A stretch of DNA of 64,000 nt from Candidatus Gottesmanbacteria bacterium GW2011_GWA2_43_14 (lineage in GTDB: Bacteria > Patescibacteriota > Microgenomatia > 2-02-FULL-39-11), in the NCBI GenBank assembly GCA_000999095.1, contig LCFP01000012.1, positions 4,140-68,139 on the forward strand. The letters are read 5' to 3'. A program made the position numbers and the translations under genes. Shown in pieces: positions 5,360-62,679 of this stretch (its first letter is position 1; each line of letters begins with the position of its first letter). The notes under the pieces were generated by a model. That model saw nothing but the letters and a program-made list of their open reading frames with translations, had not been told where the DNA came from and did not search any database.

Positions 5360-5447
5360 TTGATGGTAGATTTAATTCTAATTTTTGACAGGGCGTAAGT
5401 CAACTGTCGCAACCGAAAAATATGGGTTTATCTTTTTCAATCATAAT

Positions 5448-5503
5448 CCCGGATGTGTCTAGCTATATCACACCTGGTGTGATACGGAGGGGGGATGGGA
5501 TTT
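5448..5503 (+). repeat. Copy 1 of a roughly 50-nt intergenic repeat that contains the 17-bp perfect palindrome ATCACACCTGGTGTGAT
   Basis: cccggatgtgtctagctatatcacacctggtgtgatacgg(aggggg)gatgggatt. Matches in reverse orientation at 62594-62643, and its core matches 10078-10105. Confidence 0.85.
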
Positions 5504-6172: not shown

Positions 6173-8197
6173 TTAGGCAGCAGGCTCCGGTTCGTTTTTA
6201 CCGGCGAAAAACTCATCAGGGTTTTTAACCAGGACGTCTCTGGGTTTGGACCCTTCGGCCATGCCGACAATTCCTTCCGCTTCAAGCTGGTCCAAGACCC
6301 TGGCCGCCCGGGCGTAGCCTATTGATAATCTTCTCTGCAGTAAAGAGGCGGAAGCGCGGTCATACTGGCAGACTACCCGGACAGCCTGTTCAAATAACGC
6401 GTCATGGCCGTCTTCGCCCGTGGTGCCGGCGGGGCCACCGGCGCCTTTTTTCCAGGTGGGCGCCATGGAAGTGACTTCCTCGGTATATTCAACCGGCACA
6501 TTTTTGTTTTTCATATATTCAACCAGTTTGGCAATTTCGCCTTCGTTGACATAAGTACCCTGGATGCGGGTCGGTTTGGCCTGGTCGGGCGGGATATAAA
6601 GCATGTCACCCCGGCCTAAAAGTTTCTCGGCTCCCGGCATGTCGATAATCACCCGGGAATCGATCATCGAGGAAACGTTGAAGGCGATACGGGAAGGGAT
6701 ATTGGCTTTGATCAGGCCTGTTATAACATCAACGGAAGGCCGTTGGGTGGCCACAACCAAATGGATGCCGGTGGCCCGGGCCATCTGGGCAATACGACAG
6801 ATGGAATCCTCGACCTCGACGGGAGCGTAGGACATGAGGTCAGCCAGTTCGTCGATAAAGATAATGATATAAGGCAAGGCCTGGAAACCGGACAATTCGT
6901 TGTAGTGGTCGATATTCCTGACGCCGACTTCGGAGAAGAGCTTGTAACGGCGGTCCATCTCTGACATGGACCACTTGAGGGCGGAGAGAATTTTGTCAGG
7001 TTCGACAATGACCGGTGTCAAAAGGTGGGGAATATCCTTATATAAGGTAAGCTCGACTCTTTTGGGATCAACCAATATCAGTCTGACTTCGCTGGGGCTG
7101 TTTCGGAAGAGGATGGATGCGATCCAGGAATTGATGAGAACCGACTTGCCTGAGCCGGTCGTACCGGCTATAAGAACGTGAGGCATTTTGGCGATGTTGC
7201 CGACTACGGGACTGCCGGAAACATCCAGTCCCAGGGCAACTAGTAATTTATTCTTGCCCCGCTTCATGGAATCGCTGGACAGCATCTGTTTGACGGTGAC
7301 GAATTCGAGGGAGCGGTTTCCCAGGGCAATTTCCAGGGCATACTGGGTAACGGCCGGTCCTAAATTGACTTCGACCACCCGGGCATTGATGCCGAAACTT
7401 TCCAGAGTCTGTTCAATGGTTTGGGCGTTTTGCTTCATGTCACCCCGGTCGGCTTTCTGTCCGGGAGCAGAAGCAAGAAGCGATAAAGGCGGGTATTCCC
7501 AAACTTCTTCGGAGGCATTGAGATTGGTGACCACAGACGATCCCAAATCTCCGGGAGTTCCGGGCAGTTGGGCAGGAGCTTTTGGCGCTTTGGATTTTTC
7601 CCTGTCACTGATTTCTTTTTCAATCGGCGTATTTGTCAGTCTCGGGACGGGCGGCGGACGGATGGGCAGTTTATCGGCAAAAAGGTCTTTTTTCTTGGTT
7701 TTGACCGGGAGCTTTTCAAACAGTTCTAAAACGGATTCGGCGACTTTGACGATTTCCGCCAGAGAAATGTCAAAAAGCACCATCAGCCCCACAAAAAGCA
7801 TCAGGGAAATCATGACAAAAGAGCCGATTTCCGAGATGCGGTCGCTCGCAATCAGCCAGATAAAAGTACCCACCACTCCGCTTTGGGTCAAACCGCTCAA
7901 ACAGAAAAAAACCAAAAGAAGGCCAAGAAGGATATTGGGCCGGGTCAGGGAAATTTTGAGTTTCAGAAAGGACAAAGAAAAAGTGAGACCAAGTATGGGC
8001 AGGAGATATTTCATGACGCCGAAATAGTAGTCGGCCGTAAATTGCAGACTGTCCAAAACAGAGCCCTGCTGAAAAAAGCTGAGGGTCAGTAAAATCGATC
8101 CGATTATAAGAAACAGGGAGAGCAGGGAAAAGATAGTGCCTTTTCTCGGTTTGAGGATTGATTTCCTTCTTCTTCTGTAGTGTCTGCGTTTAGCCAT
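6173..8197 (-). CDS. ftsK: DNA translocase FtsK/SpoIIIE
   Basis: N-terminal TM helices, Walker A GTTGSGKS, and a C-terminal gamma winged-helix (LFEQAVRVV...QRRLSIGYARAARVLDQLE). Confidence 0.9.
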   Translation of the reverse strand: MAKRRHYRRRRKSILKPRKGTIFSLLSLFLIIGSILLTLSFFQQGSVLDSLQFTADYYFGVMKYLLPILGLTFSLSFLKLKISLTRPNILLGLLLVFFCLSGLTQSGVVGTFIWLIASDRISEIGSFVMISLMLFVGLMVLFDISLAEIVKVAESVLELFEKLPVKTKKKDLFADKLPIRPPPVPRLTNTPIEKEISDREKSKAPKAPAQLPGTPGDLGSSVVTNLNASEEVWEYPPLSLLASAPGQKADRGDMKQNAQTIEQTLESFGINARVVEVNLGPAVTQYALEIALGNRSLEFVTVKQMLSSDSMKRGKNKLLVALGLDVSGSPVVGNIAKMPHVLIAGTTGSGKSVLINSWIASILFRNSPSEVRLILVDPKRVELTLYKDIPHLLTPVIVEPDKILSALKWSMSEMDRRYKLFSEVGVRNIDHYNELSGFQALPYIIIFIDELADLMSYAPVEVEDSICRIAQMARATGIHLVVATQRPSVDVITGLIKANIPSRIAFNVSSMIDSRVIIDMPGAEKLLGRGDMLYIPPDQAKPTRIQGTYVNEGEIAKLVEYMKNKNVPVEYTEEVTSMAPTWKKGAGGPAGTTGEDGHDALFEQAVRVVCQYDRASASLLQRRLSIGYARAARVLDQLEAEGIVGMAEGSKPRDVLVKNPDEFFAGKNEPEPAA

Positions 8198-12973: not shown

Positions 12974-14677
12974 TCAAACATTGATGACGACGGTCAGGAT
13001 GAGCGGACGGCGGTGGGTTTCCCTGAAGAAAAATTCCTCCAGATTGCCTTCGATCTGCCGTCTGACAAAATGCCAGTCGGTAATGCGGCCCTTTTTCAGT
13101 TTCAGGGAATTGACAATGACATTTTTAGCCTTCTCTATCAGTCCTTCCGACTCTTTCATATAAACAAAGCCGCGGGAAATAATATCCGGATCAGCTGAAA
13201 CGCGGCCGGAAGACTGGTCAATGGGCACAACCACAACCACAATTCCTTCACTGGCCATCGTCTGGCGGTCGCGAAGAACCACATGGCCGATATCGCCGAC
13301 ACCCAATCCGTCGATCATAATATTTTTTAAATTGAGGCGGTCTTTAACACTGACCTGGCCTTCTTTGGTAAATTCCAGAATTTCCCCCTCCTGGGGTTGC
13401 AGGACTTGTTGATGTTTATAGCCCATATCATAAGCCAGTTCGGCATAATGTCTCATTTGCCTGATGGTGCCGCCGATCGGCAGAATAAATTTGGGCCTGG
13501 TCAGGCCGATCATCAAAGCCAGGTCACTTTTGGATCCATGGCCTGAAACATGCAGGGCATCGGTGATTTCCGAATAGGCGACTCTGGCGCCGGCTGCGGT
13601 CAGGGAATCTATCAGGCCATGAACGGCGCTTTCATAGCCGGGAATGGGATCGGCGGAAAAGACCACGATATCCCCTTCTTTTATCGAGACAGACTTATGG
13701 ATGCCTTCGGCAATTCTGGACAGGGCTGAATTGGGCTGAGCCTGGCTGCCGGTAACAATCAGAGCCAAATCCTTGGGAGGGTGCTTGCGGATGTCTTTTT
13801 CGCGGACAACAAAGTTGTCGCTATAGTGCAGATAATTTAATTTGCGGGAGACATCGATATTTTTCTCGATCGACCTGCCTAAAAAGGCAATTTTGCGGTT
13901 GTGGCGGATAGCCACATCAACCGCCTGTTGAATCCTGGAGATGTTCGATGACTGGGTGGTGAAGATAAATTTACCAGGACAGTTCCGGATTTCTTTTTCC
14001 AGGGCATCTTCGATGACTCTTTCAGAGAGGGTATAACCTTCGGATTCCACGCGGACACAGTCTGATAAGAGGCAGACAATGCCGGAATTGGCGCTTGCTG
14101 CGATTTTGCCGACTTCAGTCTGCCTGCCGTCAATAGGCGTCCAGTCGAATTTGAAATCAGAGCCGTGGTAAAAATTGCCGACCGGAGTCCTGATAAAGAG
14201 ATTGGAGGCATCCGGTATGGAATGGGTGACATGGATGAAGCTGACGGTAAACGGGCCGAGCGTCAGATTTCTATCTTCGGCAATTTCATTCACCTGAAAC
14301 TGCAGACCGAAATCAGCTAATTTAACTTTGGCCAAGGCCGAAGTCAGTTTGTTGGCGTAAACAGGCACTTTTAGATCGGGCAGAATATAAGGCAGGGCGC
14401 CGATATGGTCTTCATGCCCGTGAGTCAGGACGATGCCGCGGATCTTGTCTTTTTTGTCCTGAAGATAGGTGATATCGGGAATAACCAGATCAATGCCGTA
14501 CATGGCTTCATCGGGAAAACCTATACCGCAGTCGACGATCAGTATGTCGCTGATAGTTTTCGGGTCTGAGCGAAGCTCATAGATATACATGTTTTTGGTG
14601 ACATTGCCGATGCCTCCCAGGGGGATCAGTCTTAAAAATTGGCCAAAGGGATTTTTATATATGGGTTCTGTTTGCAT
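12974..14677 (-). CDS. rnj: Ribonuclease J
   Basis: Metallo-beta-lactamase motif LTHGHEDHIGALPY. The length and beta-CASP region match RNase J. Confidence 0.85.
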   Translation of the reverse strand: MQTEPIYKNPFGQFLRLIPLGGIGNVTKNMYIYELRSDPKTISDILIVDCGIGFPDEAMYGIDLVIPDITYLQDKKDKIRGIVLTHGHEDHIGALPYILPDLKVPVYANKLTSALAKVKLADFGLQFQVNEIAEDRNLTLGPFTVSFIHVTHSIPDASNLFIRTPVGNFYHGSDFKFDWTPIDGRQTEVGKIAASANSGIVCLLSDCVRVESEGYTLSERVIEDALEKEIRNCPGKFIFTTQSSNISRIQQAVDVAIRHNRKIAFLGRSIEKNIDVSRKLNYLHYSDNFVVREKDIRKHPPKDLALIVTGSQAQPNSALSRIAEGIHKSVSIKEGDIVVFSADPIPGYESAVHGLIDSLTAAGARVAYSEITDALHVSGHGSKSDLALMIGLTRPKFILPIGGTIRQMRHYAELAYDMGYKHQQVLQPQEGEILEFTKEGQVSVKDRLNLKNIMIDGLGVGDIGHVVLRDRQTMASEGIVVVVVPIDQSSGRVSADPDIISRGFVYMKESEGLIEKAKNVIVNSLKLKKGRITDWHFVRRQIEGNLEEFFFRETHRRPLILTVVINV

Positions 14678-20784: not shown

Positions 20785-22281
20785 TTAGCCTATAGATATT
20801 ATACTATCACCTGTCAAGACCTCTATGTTTCCGGCCAATCCGACACCGGCTTCTGTACCGGTTTCCGCTTTGGTTATGTCGGTTTTATGAAATTTGAGTG
20901 ATTTGATTTTTGTTCTGCCGATTTCTACATCATTGCGCATGATTTTTATTTGATCTCCTTTGGCTATTCTGCCTGAAGTGACTTTGGCGCCCAAAACAAT
21001 TTCGCCCTTGTAATTGAAGACAGCCAGAACATTGGCTTTGCCGAAGATTTCCACCAGGTCTCCTTTTCTTAAAGCTTCGATAACTTCTTCCAATTCATCC
21101 AGCAGCTCATAAATAATATTATAAGTTTTAATTAGTACTTTCTCCGATTTTGCCAATTTCAGTACCTGATCTGACGGTTTTACGGCAAAGCCGATAATCA
21201 GGGCTTTGGTGGTTTTTGCCAATAAGACATCTGATTCCGAAATATTGCCCACACCTGACAAGATGATTTTTGTCCGGTCTTTAAGGCTGCTAAGGCCTAC
21301 GGAAATAGCTTCCAAAGTACCTGTTGTATCGGCACGGACGATCAACCTTATTTGTTCCGTTAATAATTCATTTTCAGTTGTTTCAACTATCGGTTTCGGA
21401 GATTGAGGTGAAATGGATTTCCCCTGCGGTTTTACTATTTCAGACTCATTTTTCAGGTAAAGGCTGGAGCCGACAGCCGGCAACTTATTCCAGCCTAAAA
21501 CTTCAGCCGGATCCCCGGCGCTGACAGTTTTCAAGGGCTGACCAAGCCAATCTGTTAAAGCCCGTATACGGAATTCCTGCTTATCGGATACGCAATCGTC
21601 ACCGATTGACAGAGATCCCCGGCGTACAATCACCGTGGCTGTAATGCCTTTATTTTTGGATAATAAAGATTCGATAACAACGCCGTGGAATTGACCGCTT
21701 TTTTCTGCTGTTTTAAACAAATCATTCAATACCAGAATCATTTCCAGCAGTTTATCGATACCGCTGCCGTTTTTCGCCGAAACCGGAACAAGCGGAGTTT
21801 CCCCGCCGTACTCTTCAAGTTCGACGCCGTTTTTCGAGAGTTGTTTTTTAACCATCTCCTGATTGAGATTGGGCAGATCAATTTTATTCAAGGCTACCAG
21901 AAACGGGATTTTAGCCCTTTTTATATGTTCAATTGATTCGATAGTTTGAGGTTTGACACCGTCATTGGCAGCGACCACCAGGATGGCGACATCGGCAACG
22001 GTTGCCCCCCGGCTTCTCATTTCGGCAAAAGCCTGGTGTCCGGGAGTATCTATAAAAGTAATTTTTTGGGGAAAAGCAGGTTGTTTTAAAAGGGTTTGAG
22101 GAACATCTATTTGGTAGGCGGCTATGTGTTGGGTGATGCCTCCGTGTTCGCGGGCGGCAATATTAGTTTTTCTTATTGTATCTAAAAGTGAAGTTTTGCC
22201 GTGGTCAACATGACCTAAAACAGCCACTACCGGAGGCCTAGCAGAAACAGTTTGCACATTTGATTTTTTGTTTTTGGCCAT
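20785..22281 (-). CDS. infB: Translation initiation factor IF-2 (short form)
   Basis: GTPase G1 motif [25 protein letters not shown], and C-terminal beta-barrels. Confidence 0.9.
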   Translation of the reverse strand: MAKNKKSNVQTVSARPPVVAVLGHVDHGKTSLLDTIRKTNIAAREHGGITQHIAAYQIDVPQTLLKQPAFPQKITFIDTPGHQAFAEMRSRGATVADVAILVVAANDGVKPQTIESIEHIKRAKIPFLVALNKIDLPNLNQEMVKKQLSKNGVELEEYGGETPLVPVSAKNGSGIDKLLEMILVLNDLFKTAEKSGQFHGVVIESLLSKNKGITATVIVRRGSLSIGDDCVSDKQEFRIRALTDWLGQPLKTVSAGDPAEVLGWNKLPAVGSSLYLKNESEIVKPQGKSISPQSPKPIVETTENELLTEQIRLIVRADTTGTLEAISVGLSSLKDRTKIILSGVGNISESDVLLAKTTKALIIGFAVKPSDQVLKLAKSEKVLIKTYNIIYELLDELEEVIEALRKGDLVEIFGKANVLAVFNYKGEIVLGAKVTSGRIAKGDQIKIMRNDVEIGRTKIKSLKFHKTDITKAETGTEAGVGLAGNIEVLTGDSIISIG

Positions 22282-30000: not shown

Positions 30001-30799
30001 GGGAATATTGGCTGCCCAGTCAATCGGGGAACCGGGTACGCAATTGACAATGAGAGTCAGGCATGCTGGTGGAATTGTCGGTTTGGACGTTACCCAAGGT
30101 TTACCAAGAGTTGAGGAGTTGTTTGAGGCCAGAACGCCCAAAATTTCATCTCCATTGGCTGAAATTTCCGGTAAAGTGACAGTCGAAGAATTAGATGAAG
30201 GCTACCAAATTACCATTAAAAGTGTCGGTATTAAACCGATTGAACAAAGAACTTATTCTGTATTAAAGACCAGTGAACTTAAAGTCAAAACAGGCGACCT
30301 GATTTCTGCAGGAGAAGCTTTAACATCAGGTCCTTTGGATATAAAACAAGTATTGCAGATAAGGGATCTTTTGGAAACGCAAAATTACCTGCTGTCTGAA
30401 GTTCAAAAAGTTTATGAATCTCAGGGAATTCCTATTCATGATAAGCATTTTGAAGTGATTATCAGAAAAATGAGCGACAAGGTTAGAATCGAAAGTTCGG
30501 GTGACACCATTCTGCTGCCGGGAGAAATGGTGGATAAGTCAGCTTTTGAGGAGGAAAATGCCCGGATCCTGGCCAGTGGTGGAGAACCGTCAACTGCACA
30601 AGTTGTTATCTTGGGTATTACCAGAGCTTCACTATATACAGAGTCATGGCTTTCCAGCGCTTCATTTCAGGAAACTACTTCGGTTTTGACTGATGCAGCC
30701 TTAGCCGGTAAAGTCGACCGTTTGTTGGGACTAAAAGAAAATGTTATAATCGGCCGTCTTATTCCGGTATCAGAAGACCGGGCCAGAATCGGAGTTTAA
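27080..30799 (+). CDS. rpoC: RNA polymerase beta' subunit
   Basis: Zn-finger CxxC..CxxC, the NADFDGDQMAVH catalytic motif, and a trigger loop. Confidence 0.95.
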   Translation: MDKKGNFGNIVDFEGLKITLASSLDILNWSYGEISKPETINYRTLKPEKDGLFDERIFGPTKDWECYCGKYKRIRYRGIICDKCGVEVTQSKVRRERMGHIKLAAPVSHVWFFKGTPSKLSLIMDITPKALENIIYFASYLVIDVDREGHKKAQDVLKQAFEKRKEERQKINKERIEDIEKEHSQEKDSVKERIKNKETRDLTLQELDYRKKQQLTMLAEENASEESTAKEIFSTILDLVNRVKPLSVISEDEYLKLREYNVGSFIKVGMGAECLLEILRKMDLNKTIIELRKEAQDTSGQRKIKATKRLRVIESLKKAEIDPSWMILSVLPVIPPDLRPMVQLTGGKFATSDLNDLYRRVINRNNRLKHLIELGAPEIILRNEKRMLQEAVDSLIDASQRPSGRTSAGQALRSLSDMLRGKQGRFRQNLLGKRVDYSGRSVIVVGPELQLTQCGLPKEMALELFKPFVLRELILRGLAPNVKSAKNILDGREAEVFDILEEITRNHPVLLNRAPTLHKLGIQAFFPILIEGSAIRIHPCVCAGYNADFDGDQMAVHVPLSQAAQDEAKNLMLPSNNLLKPADGTPITIPNKEMALGCYYLTSFSKASADIPDSELPIFSDGPQAILAYQNGKIEVRQPIRVRIEGKILRTSVGRVLLNEILPVDLRYFNEPVKVGTIKALVTKAFDLYSKEEVTQLIDKFKDLGFYGATIAGGVSVSVFDNIIIPEKQKMIHEAETKVTEVEENYQQGLITNEERKRLENEIWIDITERLADATWDAMTVDNPVKIIINSGGARASKDQLKQLSAVKGLVVDPLGKIVELPTKSNYREGLSIFEYVTSTRGSRKGLTDSALKTADAGYLTRRLIDVAHDAIIRSEDCGTSNGLRFDRSDKRQASLELRVMSRVLAEDVHAPKQKKAIMKKGELITEDKMPLLKDVETVIVRSPLTCQLKYGLCAQCYGIDLSSKKFVELGTPVGILAAQSIGEPGTQLTMRVRHAGGIVGLDVTQGLPRVEELFEARTPKISSPLAEISGKVTVEELDEGYQITIKSVGIKPIEQRTYSVLKTSELKVKTGDLISAGEALTSGPLDIKQVLQIRDLLETQNYLLSEVQKVYESQGIPIHDKHFEVIIRKMSDKVRIESSGDTILLPGEMVDKSAFEEENARILASGGEPSTAQVVILGITRASLYTESWLSSASFQETTSVLTDAALAGKVDRLLGLKENVIIGRLIPVSEDRARIGV

Positions 30800-30802
30800 T
30801 TT

Positions 30803-31258
30803 ATGCCGACAATAAATCAATTAGTTAAAAAAGGCAGGAGGAGATCCGCCAAAAAAGTCAAAGCTACAGCTTTGAGAAAATATTTTAATGCCAAAGACCG
30901 TGAGATGAAGCAAATTGCTGCTCCCTTTAAACGCGGAGTGGTCACACTTGTTAAAACCATGACTCCGAAAAAACCCAATTCCGCATTGAGAAAAGTAGCC
31001 AGGGTCAGACTATCCAATAAACAGGAAGTAACGGCATATATTCCCGGTATCGGACACGAGCTTTCCGAGCATGCCATTGTTCTTGTCAGAGGGGGACGTG
31101 TAAAGGATTTACCGGGTGTAAAATATCATATTGTCCGGGGAAAATTCGACACTTCAGGCGTCAACGGACGCCGTCAGGGAAGATCAAAATACGGAACTAA
31201 AAAAGGAGAAGTTGCAGGTTCAGCTCCCATGCCTTCCGCCCCAACACCGGCCGCTTAA
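30803..31258 (+). CDS. rpsL: Ribosomal protein S12 (with an insertion and a C-terminal extension)
   Basis: [42 protein letters not shown]. Confidence 0.9.
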
Positions 31259-31842: not shown

Positions 31843-33842
31843 ATGGCACAAAATGTAACCGTCACCAAAAACAGGAACGTACCTTTGGCCAGGTTGAGGA
31901 ATATCGGCATTATTGCCCATATTGATGCCGGTAAAACCACGACCACCGAAAGGATACTTTATTATACCGGTAAATCCTACAAGATCGGTGACATTGATGA
32001 GGGTACAACCCAGATGGACTGGATGCCTCAGGAGAAAGAAAGAGGCATAACTATCACCGTTTGGATGCGGAAGAAGGCGTCCAGTCCCAATCAGAGACTG
32101 TCTGGCATCAGGCGGATAAATACAAAGTTCCCCGGATATGTTTTATTAACAAGATGGATAAACTGGGTGCTGACTTTCTGAGAACTGTGCAAATGATTAA
32201 AGACCGCCTGGGAGCCAATCCGGCCATCATGAATTTACCGATAGGCAAAGAACATGAATACATAGGCGTTGTCGATCTTTTAACCAGAAAAAGCATGATT
32301 TGGGGAACCGATGTGCTCGGAGCGAAATATGATCTGTCAGACGAGATTCCGGCCGGTATGAAAGATGAAGTGGAAAAATACCGCCACAAACTGATCGAAC
32401 AGATTTGTGAGCAGGATGATGCCCTTTTGGAAAAATACCTGGGCGGAAATGAACCGTCTCTGGAAGAATTAAAGAAAGTATTGAGGAAGACTACCATCGC
32501 CTATAAACTGGTGCCGATTTATGCCGGTTCATCATTAAGAAATAAGGGAGTTCAGCCTCTTTTGGATGCTATTGTCGATTACCTCCCGTCGCCTTTGGAA
32601 GTATCAGGCATCAAAGGCATTAATCCCAAGACAAACCAGGAGGAATTGAGAAAAACTGATTCTAACGAGCCGTTTTCGGCTCTGGCCTTCAAAATCCAAT
32701 TGGATCCGCATGTAGGTAAATTGACTTACATCCGGATTTATTCAGGTAAATTGACCTCCGGTTCATATGCCTGGAATGCCTCTAAAGACAAGCAGGAAAG
32801 GGTCGGCCGCCTGCTTTTAATGCATGCCAATAACCGTGAAGAAATACAGGAAGCTTATGCCGGAGAGATAGTAGCGGTTGTGGGTTTGAAGGAAACGGGT
32901 ACAGGTGATACTTTAAGCCAACAGACAAGGCCAATTATTTTGGAGAAGATTACTTTTCCGGATCCTGTTATTTCTCTGGCCATTGAACCGAAAACCAAGG
33001 CTGACCAGGAAAAAATGGGACAAGCCCTGCAAAGACTTGCCGAAGAAGACCCGACTTTTATAGTTAAATCAAATTTGGAAACAGGACAAACTATCATCTG
33101 GGGCATGGGTGAACTTCATCTGGAAGTTCTGGTCGACAGAATGAAAAGGGAATTCAAAGTCGATGCTAATGTCGGAGCGCCACAGGTTGCTTATAAAGAA
33201 ACGATCAAAGGTAAAGCCGAAGGGGAGGGAAAATATATACGTCAGACAGGTGGCCGGGGACAATACGGTCATTGTTTCCTTAGAGTTGAACCAAAAGCCA
33301 GAGGTGAAGGTTACGAATTTGTTGACGCCATCAAAGGCGCGGCAATACCCAATGAATTTATTCCTTCAGTGCAAAAAGGAGTCAAAGAAGCATTGGATAA
33401 GGGCATTCTAGCCGGATACCCGGTAGTTGATATGAAAGTCACCCTTTATGACGGCACATACCATGATGTGGATTCATCAGATATCGCCTTTAAAATTGCC
33501 GGCAGTATAGCTTTGCAGAGTGCAGCCAAACAGGCCGGTTTAATCCTTCTGGAACCGATCATGAAGGTCGAAGTGACGACTCCTGATGAATTTATGGGTA
33601 CGGTCATCGGAGATATATCGAGTAAAAGAGCTCAAATCCTGGGAACGGAAAAACGCGGTACTGTTTCCATTATTATCGCATTGGTACCTTTAGCGGAACT
33701 TTCAGGATATGCGACAACCTTAAGGTCTGTTTCCCAAGGCCGGGCAACTTACTATATGGAGCCTTCACATTACGAGGAAGTTCCTAAAAACATTACTGAA
33801 AAAATCGTTTCCTCAGTTTCCCATCCGTCTACCCGGGGTTAA
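31843..33842 (+). CDS. fusA: Elongation factor G with an apparent internal deletion and frameshift at about 32052-32066. The G3/DTPGH segment is missing.
   Basis: ORF 31843..32181 encodes the G1/G2 region up to ERGITIT. ORF 32061..33842 resumes at (V)[26 protein letters not shown] in another frame. About 35-40 codons are absent between them. Confidence 0.85.
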
Positions 33843-33854
33843 ACTTCCGTCTTC

Positions 33855-34772
33855 TTACTTCTGAAGTTCTTTTTTCCTGAAGAAAAAGCGCAGGATCAAG
33901 ATCGCGGGGATGATGATGACTGAGTAGACAAAAGCCCAGATAGCCAGAGTGCCTACTTTTCTCAGGTTGGCAATTAATGATCTGACCGCTGTTTTAAAGA
34001 TGACGTCCGGCCTCCAGGTTTCAGAGGGTGCGTATGGCAATGAGAATTCATCGGTTGATAAATTTATGGTGATTCGGGCAAGTTGGGCGTTTTTCTCAAG
34101 GTAATTTTGCCGACCCTTGTAGGAATCGATCTGGTTTTCCAAATTAATCAGTTCCTGCTGAACCCTGAGGATATCGGAGATTTCCACAGCAGATTCAAAA
34201 ATAGCCTCGAATTTAGCTTTAGTACGGTTTAATGTAACCAGTTTGGCGTCAATATCCTCATATTCATCGGTGACGTCATTGCCGTATAAATTTTCCCAGA
34301 CAACTTTAACCGCCAGACCCCTTAAAGAATTTAAGGTTGCATCCAATTGGGAAGCCGGTACTCTGACTGTCAGGGAAGCATAAGGTGCATCTTCAGGAGA
34401 TGAAAGGCTGCTGTTGACCATATAGCCGCCGGCCGCCTTGACCTGGCTTAAAATATCATCCAGGGCTGTCCGCACGTTTTTTACCTGCAGGGAAATATCG
34501 GAATTCTGGATGACAAGTCTGTCTTGTGCGTTATTAGTCGGAGCATAATCCGCTGAAGAAGGAATTATGCTTTTGCCTAAGCCCCGGGAACCAAGTCCCA
34601 TCTCCGGTGCGGCCATATCGAAGCTTTCGGTCATACCCAAATTCGGTTGATAGCTTTTTCTGAGGTTAACTGAAAAGAGACCGGAATTATTTTTCAGAAG
34701 GAAATATAAAACGGCTACAGCCAAAAGTGCCGTCAGTCTGTTGTTTTTTATCCAGGAAAAAACAGCCTTCAT
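33855..34772 (-). CDS. DUF4349-like membrane protein (N- and C-terminal TM helices, coiled-coil core)
   Basis: 305 aa on the opposite strand, inserted between fusA and tuf. Confidence 0.4.
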   Translation of the reverse strand: MKAVFSWIKNNRLTALLAVAVLYFLLKNNSGLFSVNLRKSYQPNLGMTESFDMAAPEMGLGSRGLGKSIIPSSADYAPTNNAQDRLVIQNSDISLQVKNVRTALDDILSQVKAAGGYMVNSSLSSPEDAPYASLTVRVPASQLDATLNSLRGLAVKVVWENLYGNDVTDEYEDIDAKLVTLNRTKAKFEAIFESAVEISDILRVQQELINLENQIDSYKGRQNYLEKNAQLARITINLSTDEFSLPYAPSETWRPDVIFKTAVRSLIANLRKVGTLAIWAFVYSVIIIPAILILRFFFRKKELQK

Positions 34773-61631: not shown

Positions 61632-62624
61632 ATGAAGACCATTTATGTCTCCCATTTGAAAAAATATTACCGTATTTTCAAAAGGCGTGAGGGGCTTTTA
61701 TCGGCTTTCAAATCATTGGTTTCCAGGCCGCAGCATACAGTCAAAGCGGTCGATGATATTTCTTTCTCAATCGGTGAAGGTGAGCTGGTCGGTTTTATCG
61801 GGCCCAACGGTGCCGGAAAAACAACCACGCTCAAATGCCTCTCCGGCCTTTTATATCCGTCGGCAGGTGTAGTTGAAGTTCTGGGATTCAAGCCATTCAA
61901 AAGAAATAATAATTATTTAAAACAGATCAGCCTGGTCATGGGGCAGAAAAACCAGCTCTGGTGGGATTTGCCGGCCATGGAATCCCTGCGTCTGAACAAG
62001 GAAATTTACGATCTCACCGAAAGGCAGTTCAGGGAGAATCTGGAGGAACTGTCTCAGCTTCTGGAAGTCGGTGATATGGCAAAGGTGCCGGTCAGGCAGC
62101 TCTCTTTGGGCCAAAGAATGAAAATGGAACTGATTGCCGCCCTCATTCACCATCCCAAAGTCCTCTTTTTGGACGAGCCGACCATAGGATTGGATATCGT
62201 CATGCAGAAAAAAATGAGGGATTTTATTGCCGGTTACAACCGCAACCACAAGGCGACCATTATTCTGACCAGCCATTATATGGCCGATGTCAAAGAGCTG
62301 GCCAAACGGGTCATCATCATCGACCGGGGCAGACTTCTCTATGACGGCAACCTGACCGATTTGATAAAAAAATATGCCGACCACAAAGTCATCACCGCCC
62401 ATTTTGAAAAAGAGGTCAAGAGCGAGGATTTCAGGAAACTGGGCAAACTCAAGTCAGTCAACGGTAAATCAGTTAGTTTTACGGTTTCAAGGAACCGGGC
62501 CAAGGCGGTTGCGGTGGATCTCTTAAAAAATTACCGCATCCGCGATTTTGAGATCGAGGAACCGGAACTGGAAGACGTCATTTCCATTATCTTCCAATCC
62601 CATCCCGTATCACACCAGGTGTGA
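61632..62624 (+). CDS. ABC transporter ATP-binding protein
   Basis: Walker A GPNGAGKTT, signature LSLGQRMK, Walker B LFLDEPTIGLD. The stop codon lies inside repeat copy 3. Confidence 0.85.
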   Translation: MKTIYVSHLKKYYRIFKRREGLLSAFKSLVSRPQHTVKAVDDISFSIGEGELVGFIGPNGAGKTTTLKCLSGLLYPSAGVVEVLGFKPFKRNNNYLKQISLVMGQKNQLWWDLPAMESLRLNKEIYDLTERQFRENLEELSQLLEVGDMAKVPVRQLSLGQRMKMELIAALIHHPKVLFLDEPTIGLDIVMQKKMRDFIAGYNRNHKATIILTSHYMADVKELAKRVIIIDRGRLLYDGNLTDLIKKYADHKVITAHFEKEVKSEDFRKLGKLKSVNGKSVSFTVSRNRAKAVAVDLLKNYRIRDFEIEEPELEDVISIIFQSHPVSHQV

Positions 62625-62643
62625 TATAGCTAGACACATCCGG
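62594..62643 (-). repeat. Copy 3 (inverted orientation) of the roughly 50-nt palindromic repeat
   Basis: Its reverse complement, cccggatgtgtctagctatatcacacctggtgtgatacgggatgggattgg, matches copy 1 apart from a 6-nt indel. Confidence 0.85.
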
Positions 62644-62679
62644 GTTGAGAGATGGGAGAGGCAGATATATGAGGTAATC

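Follow-up and report, generated by a model that had tools for sequence, protein, structure and literature searches.

We found that the interrupted fusA gene, which encodes elongation factor G (EF-G), of the Gottesmanbacteria draft genome GW2011_GWA2_43_14 was probably broken by a local mis-assembly in the deposited scaffold and not in the organism. Most likely we are dealing with a local assembly defect, or with a rare deletion variant at most, rather than with unusual biology; the interruption as observed is most probably not a property of the organism. At the level of sequence, other assemblies demonstrate that the aquifer population has an ordinary, intact 706-aa fusA within a rpoBC-rpsL-rpsG-fusA-(DUF4349)-tuf-S10 cluster, and that the deposited scaffold is without two stretches of about 120 nt that these assemblies contain.

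In the window, by which we mean the whole 64-kb stretch of DNA that was analysed, fusA is flanked by the genes for S12, S7, EF-Tu and S10, in the order rpoB, rpoC, rpsL, rpsG, fusA, a DUF4349 gene (on the opposite strand), tuf, rpsJ, rplC and onward. The gene reads as follows.

31843–32058, plus strand: 5′ fragment of fusA, EF-G codons 1–72 in frame 1 (tblastn, Pfam and identity with the intact contig L002)
Within 31843–32058, plus strand: P-loop AHIDAGKTT and switch I/G2 (...ERGITIT) of the 5′ fragment
32059–32060, plus strand: junction, with the 121 nt of L002 5176–5296 missing between the two bases
32059–32181, plus strand: out-of-frame tail of the 112-aa ORF, ending in VLTF and a stop; by translation, EF-G coding sequence in the wrong frame
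32061–33842, plus strand: 3′ part of fusA, EF-G residues 114–706 in frame 3 (Pfam, tblastn and alignment with L002)

The first-pass annotation had described an EF-G-like translation that runs out of frame and resumes in another frame, and both tblastn and Pfam bear this out. The 112-aa ORF (31843–32181) has an N-terminus typical of EF-G (MAQN...) and is later out of frame, its last in-frame codon being the ACC at 32056–32058 for the final T of ...ERGITIT. The 593-aa ORF (32061–33842) lies in another frame and reaches the normal EF-G C-terminus. In tblastn searches against the window, residues 3–64 of Escherichia coli EF-G matched 31873–32058 in frame 1 (E = 4e-23) and residues 118–701 matched 32076–33815 in frame 3 (E = 0), while residues 65–117 had no match anywhere in the 64 kb. 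The Pfam GTP_EFTU profile is likewise split, with positions 2–59 in the 112-aa ORF, positions 101–188 in the 593-aa ORF and positions 60–100 missing. The window fusA has domains II–V (EF-G_D2, EFG_III, EFG_IV and EFG_C are all above the Pfam cut-offs) and the str-operon context (rpsL-rpsG-fusA-tuf), and it lacks a complete single-frame G domain with G1, G2/switch I, G3 (DxxG)/switch II, G4 and G5. In GenBank, the two pieces are filed as separate ‘elongation factor G’ proteins, P0121 (112 aa) and P0032 (KKS96007.1, 562 aa), on a GW2011_GWA2_43_14 contig of 140,268 nt.

A few other features of this region were observed. The DUF4349 gene (33855–34772, minus strand) between fusA and tuf interrupts the usual str operon, and a relative with 84% EF-G identity (L016) has a PIN/MazE toxin-antitoxin pair and DUF4349 at the equivalent place. 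The S12 protein (30803–31258, plus strand) carries an Ala/Pro-rich C-terminal extension of about 20 residues. IF-2 (20785–22281, minus strand) is short, with 498 aa, and begins directly at the G domain.

Alignment with the 99.97%-identical intact contig L002 showed that exactly 121 nt (L002 5176–5296) are absent at 32059|32060, the very position (acc-g/tt-tgg-atg) at which the junction had been placed before. The missing segment amounts to 40 1/3 codons, so that fusA is frameshifted, and it includes the G3 motif DTPGH/switch II. The loss had earlier been put at 35–40 codons or about 110 nt with DxPGH included; the absence of the motif stands, and the size was close to the measured one. Outside the gap, both the 5′ fragment and the 3′ part (G4/G5, the G′ insertion and domains II–V) are 100% identical to the intact allele. 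When the 121 nt are restored, fusA becomes an ordinary contiguous 706-aa gene, and L002, which has them, shows a full G domain with a complete GTP_EFTU match (profile 2–188/188). The fusA gene is essential, and GTP hydrolysis by EF-G requires the G3 motif DxxG and switch II. That an allele lacking them should be fixed in a single-copy gene which the cell cannot do without is therefore implausible.

It could be supposed that the gene is nonetheless expressed, by a programmed frameshift or bypass, as a split EF-G, or as an EF-G working without switch II. We give this idea next to no credence. It has in its favour only that two long ORFs remain intact on either side of the junction, but the missing residues take in G3 and strands from the core of the G domain, EF-G is normal and contiguous in close relatives at 71–84% identity and in other assemblies of the same strain, and the split arrangement is not conserved in any other contig. 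With the interruption not conserved in relatives and the G3 motif absent from the window, a programmed frameshift or translational bypass was rejected, and a programmed or functional interruption is effectively excluded.

We then investigated the junction itself. No repeat of 15 nt or longer was found at the fusA junction when 15-, 21- and 31-mers were checked, and thus the gap is not a repeat collapse; the same check rejected repeat collapse at the ftsK junction described below. The earlier proposal of a collapsed or mis-joined assembly accordingly survives in its second half only: mis-joining is favoured by the intact alleles elsewhere and by the ftsK gap, while collapse is not. Comparison of the window with L002 showed no clean microhomology at the gap ends, only the imperfect repeat TCACCG/TCACGG. 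A slip between these two words would delete 120 nt in frame, whereas the window has one T fewer. An inverted repeat with 12 of 13 positions matching flanks the fusA segment. A hairpin-mediated deletion is not supported, as the predicted DNA structure of the intact region is not unusual relative to shuffled controls (z = 0.5) and the junctions are not at the base of the inverted repeat. We also considered that the missing segment had been moved elsewhere in the window by inversion or transposition, and rejected it: the only other GTPase matches in tblastn of the window were EF-Tu and IF-2. The same search revealed no second fusA within the 64 kb.

Further contigs of the population were found through the neighbouring proteins S7, DUF4349, RpoC, PNPase and SecY. 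The site is spanned wholly or partly by at least eight contigs of other assemblies (ENA and JGI), all of which carry the 121 nt. They are 99.9–100% identical to the window, and several have its SNP haplotype. Contigs bearing on the site are the following.

Three ENA contigs of 44–132 kb: intact fusA, encoding protein P0001
ENA contigs L005 (MGnify assembly of SRR1658466, PRJNA268031), L006 and L008: the rpoC SNP alleles of the window together with the intact 121 nt
L009, JGI 3300025309: intact at the fusA site
L007 and L011, JGI 3300025308: 100% identical to the window over more than 17 kb, broken at the site

P0001 is the closest full-length homologue, and its identity (94%) is lowered only by the alignment gap. 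It is encoded on scaffold_1121 of the ENA assembly ERZ28564302 (ANAN16-1, BioSample SAMN03202995), which over 12 kb matches the window at 99.96–99.97% identity and contains the additional 121 nt; the only other differences over this length are two synonymous rpoC SNPs at 30565 and 30610. PRJNA268031 is a time series of filtrates from the Rifle aquifer, from which the MAG GW2011_GWA2_43_14 also comes. None of the ENA and JGI contigs recovered contains the aberrant sequence, and these independent assemblies agree on the normal gene. In the first-pass annotation, a restoration of the missing stretch (estimated there at about 110 nt) had been named as the sign of an assembly error; the independent assemblies, including contigs of the window haplotype, restore exactly 121 nt.

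The JGI assembly 3300025308 is discontinuous at this very place. Its 17-kb contig stops at window position 32024, 35 nt before the junction, and the next contig, of 25 kb, starts 3 nt inside the missing segment (L002 5179) and runs through it (the contigs at the break are Ga0209211_10006424 and Ga0209211_10003548). A break so near the junction and between two long contigs is unlikely to be a coincidence. It reflects either reads that are difficult at this position or the coexistence of two alleles.

Contigs L005, L006, L008 and L009, from four assemblies, all end within 3 nt of about 32351–32354 (L002 5587–5590), at a palindrome CCGGCCGG in fusA; the opposite ends of these four contigs differ. 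This common end probably marks a strain-variable site. The aquifer samples contain at least three coexisting near-identical haplotypes (at least 99.85% identity), with variable sites at window positions 14210, 14223, 14612, 30565 and 30610 and, in L013, at L002 6488, 6663 and 8239. The coexisting haplotypes probably explain why several assemblies are fragmented here. Two other causes of the breaks were considered and rejected. K-mers of a co-occurring relative (84% aa identity) share words of at most 27 nt with this region, none of them at the breaks. A tandem duplication or loop (A-C-B-C-D) uniting the junction with the ends at about 32352 is contradicted by a contig of the Logan collection, described below, that runs straight through, and also by contigs with the normal A-B-C order.

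When the frameshifted 112-aa ORF was used as a protein query, the matches were only the GenBank entry and unrelated frameshifted fusA fragments of other assemblies, the latter through a shared out-of-frame tail. A search with the 99-aa segment after the junction retrieved only proteins that are short and distant. Scans for exact patterns in JGI metagenome contigs and in genome contigs, collections without this strain, gave no match. A scan of GTDB representative genomes for fusA-related loci gave one locus per genome, none of them from this species. Several other EF-G N-terminal fragments in public assemblies run out of frame within the first ~170 codons: P0192 (169 aa, from GW2011_GWA2_44_17, another MAG of the same GWA2 sample), P0146, P0148, P0151, P0158, P0170 and P0224. 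Such cases suggest that assembly or sequencing repeatedly yields broken fusA calls, and that the defect is not peculiar to GW2011_GWA2_43_14.

About 49 kb of the window (7238–56210) was compared with an ENA scaffold (L022), and one further structural difference was found.

6173–8197, minus strand: ftsK with the second gap, 123 nt missing at 7319|7320 relative to L022 21968–22090

These 123 nt correspond to 41 in-frame codons of the conserved FtsK alpha domain. The Pfam match to FtsK_alpha covers profile positions 2–72/101 in the window (45.7 bits) and positions 2–101/101 in L022 (103.9 bits). The ftsK junction has no clean microhomology and no repeated 15-, 21- or 31-mers; ACCAAAC forms an imperfect short repeat close to both gap ends. 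When the two gaps are set aside, three SNPs separate the window from the ENA scaffold, and none separates it from the JGI contigs of the same haplotype. Two large gaps without point changes are not how real divergence accumulates. A similar defect thus recurs on the same scaffold, and the 123-nt ftsK gap supports a systematic assembly origin of the fusA gap. Taken together, two gaps of nearly equal size, located in conserved cores, without repeats or point differences and absent from every recovered ENA and JGI contig that spans them, favour a procedural origin.

The likely course of events is that scaffolding or local reassembly of a draft with about 14x coverage dropped about 120 nt at each of two contig joins. 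The first loss (121 nt at 32059|32060 in fusA) would have removed G3/switch II and shifted the frame, and the second would have taken 123 nt from ftsK (7319|7320). The standard pipeline of the laboratory uses IDBA-UD (mink 40, maxk 100) on 150-bp Illumina reads, and its genome names encode the sample, the GC content and the coverage (PMC4736985). By this naming convention, we infer a coverage of about 14x for the GW2011_GWA2_43_14 bin. A 14x bin with a 140-kb scaffold, whose population appears in the output of other assemblers as contigs of 1–25 kb, must contain many scaffold joins. IDBA-UD, as the standard choice, would then be the presumable assembler, and the loss would have arisen at the assembly step.

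One piece of evidence does not fit easily with a pure assembler error. The Logan (k = 31) contig SRR29904086_39903, which is 29.5 kb long, has both junctions exactly as in the window and is 100% identical to it over the 13.5 kb compared. Besides the window, the deletion-specific products of 593 aa and 627 aa are on record only in this contig. Each Logan contig is built from one SRA run by way of a de Bruijn graph with k = 31, and includes only k-mers that are present in the reads. Under the graph-cleaning rules, junctions retained in a Logan contig would dominate the library, provided that the reads are raw environmental ones. Should SRR29904086 consist of raw environmental reads, each of the two junctions is present in real DNA. 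Such agreement of an independent k-mer assembly is not expected for an error made purely by the assembler.

On the mis-assembly explanation, the Logan run with both gaps would derive from the deposited MAG and not from raw environmental reads. One end of SRR29904086_39903 is in a 41-nt exact repeat and the other is in the tuf P-loop, and the contig is longer than the JGI and ENA contigs of the same haplotype. These end points match what an ideal, repeat-limited assembly would give. Without being proof, the end points and the contig size would fit reads derived from the MAG itself. We found no mention of the MAG name, SRR29904086, neighbouring accessions, or the IMG and BioSample identifiers in the literature. 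The repeat in question, CCCGGATGTGTCTAGCTATATCACACCTGGTGTGATACGG, is an exact inverted repeat of about 41 nt at 5447–5488 (plus strand) and 62603–62644 (minus strand) and contains the palindrome TATCACACC-T-GGTGTGATA. One copy is just downstream of a gene for an HTH_25 regulator and the other lies at the stop codon of a gene for an ABC ATPase; the end of the Logan contig falls inside the first copy (5447–5488).

Alternatively, a recent Gottesmanbacteria sub-lineage might have lost 121 bp of fusA, giving a null allele, and 123 bp of ftsK, and might coexist with intact siblings. The first-pass annotation had likewise named a real deletion, offset by a second fusA copy, as the other option. We consider this unlikely, but it is the strongest competitor of the assembly defect. 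It would account for the identical junctions in the NCBI MAG and in the independent k = 31 Logan assembly of SRR29904086, since a de Bruijn assembler needs a repeat to create such a junction falsely, and there is no repeat here. The break of the JGI assembly at the fusA junction is likewise as expected with two alleles in the reads, and several haplotypes do coexist in these samples. However, such a sub-lineage would have to dominate at least one sequenced library, and a fusA null allele is lethal unless compensated. It would need another source of EF-G, such as a second fusA, of which there is none in the 64 kb, or intact and deleted chromosomes side by side in one cell; without such a source, it would not grow and would be a dead end. 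The two deletions of about 120 bp would also have to sit in conserved cores without a single SNP against contigs of the same haplotype across more than 20 kb, and their near-equal sizes (121 and 123) suggest a procedural cause. Neither deletion appears in any ENA or JGI contig recovered, and their specific products are known solely from the one Logan contig. That both deletions are real and heritable, with a CPR lineage persisting in, or even dominating, a sample although its str-operon fusA is null and its ftsK damaged, seems very improbable to us. If true, the real deletions would imply an unrecognised back-up, namely a second EF-G, mixed chromosome copies, or dependence on a host.

The junctions might also have been produced in the library, if template jumping by the polymerase caused deletion molecules to be over-represented in one low-input library; whichever assembler was given these reads would then report the junctions. 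This would reconcile read-level support in Logan with the biological implausibility of the deletions, and the imperfect short repeats near the gap ends (TCACCG/TCACGG in fusA and ACCAAAC in ftsK) as well as the inverted repeat flanking the fusA segment can be read in this sense. Yet the junctions are not on those short repeats, the predicted DNA structure is no stronger than in the shuffled controls, and the artefact molecules would have to outnumber the intact templates at two loci. We regard this origin as improbable, and a mis-assembly in the deposited scaffold remains our preferred explanation.

The practical meaning of this finding is a data-quality flag: the two fragment EF-G entries (KKS96007.1 and the 112-aa piece) and the shortened FtsK in GenBank/UniProt are unreliable. 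They should not be taken as signs that Candidate Phyla Radiation bacteria have lost genes, turned them into pseudogenes or evolved an unusual EF-G. If, on the other hand, the junctions were real and dominant, a CPR lineage living without a canonical fusA would be of biological interest. The comparison also illustrates that independent assemblies of one population can expose local defects of about 120 nt without recourse to the reads.

Known systems resemble the present case to different extents. Deletion pseudogenes of duplicated translation factors, as in bacteria with two EF-G paralogues, illustrate how an internal out-of-frame deletion could be tolerated, given a second functional copy. Here, in contrast, the affected gene is the str-operon copy, no second copy exists in the 64 kb, and the window fusA is 100% identical to intact alleles outside the gap, without the decay by point mutations that a pseudogene would show. 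In within-population indel polymorphism, the coexisting haplotypes are nearly identical apart from SNPs and indels, and it is at the variable sites that assemblies break up, much as in this region; however, tolerated variants normally spare the catalytic core of an essential single-copy gene. Local assembly errors in draft MAG scaffolds, especially those from IDBA-UD, are defined by absent read support, whereas the Logan contig of SRR29904086 shows the same junctions as the window. In other respects the likeness is clear: short wrong or missing stretches occur in otherwise accurate scaffolds and break genes. There are several such errors per genome (13 in one 1.13-Mb CPR genome), and other assemblies of that population allow the correct sequence to be recovered (Chen, Anantharaman, Shaiber, Eren & Banfield 2020, PMC7111523).
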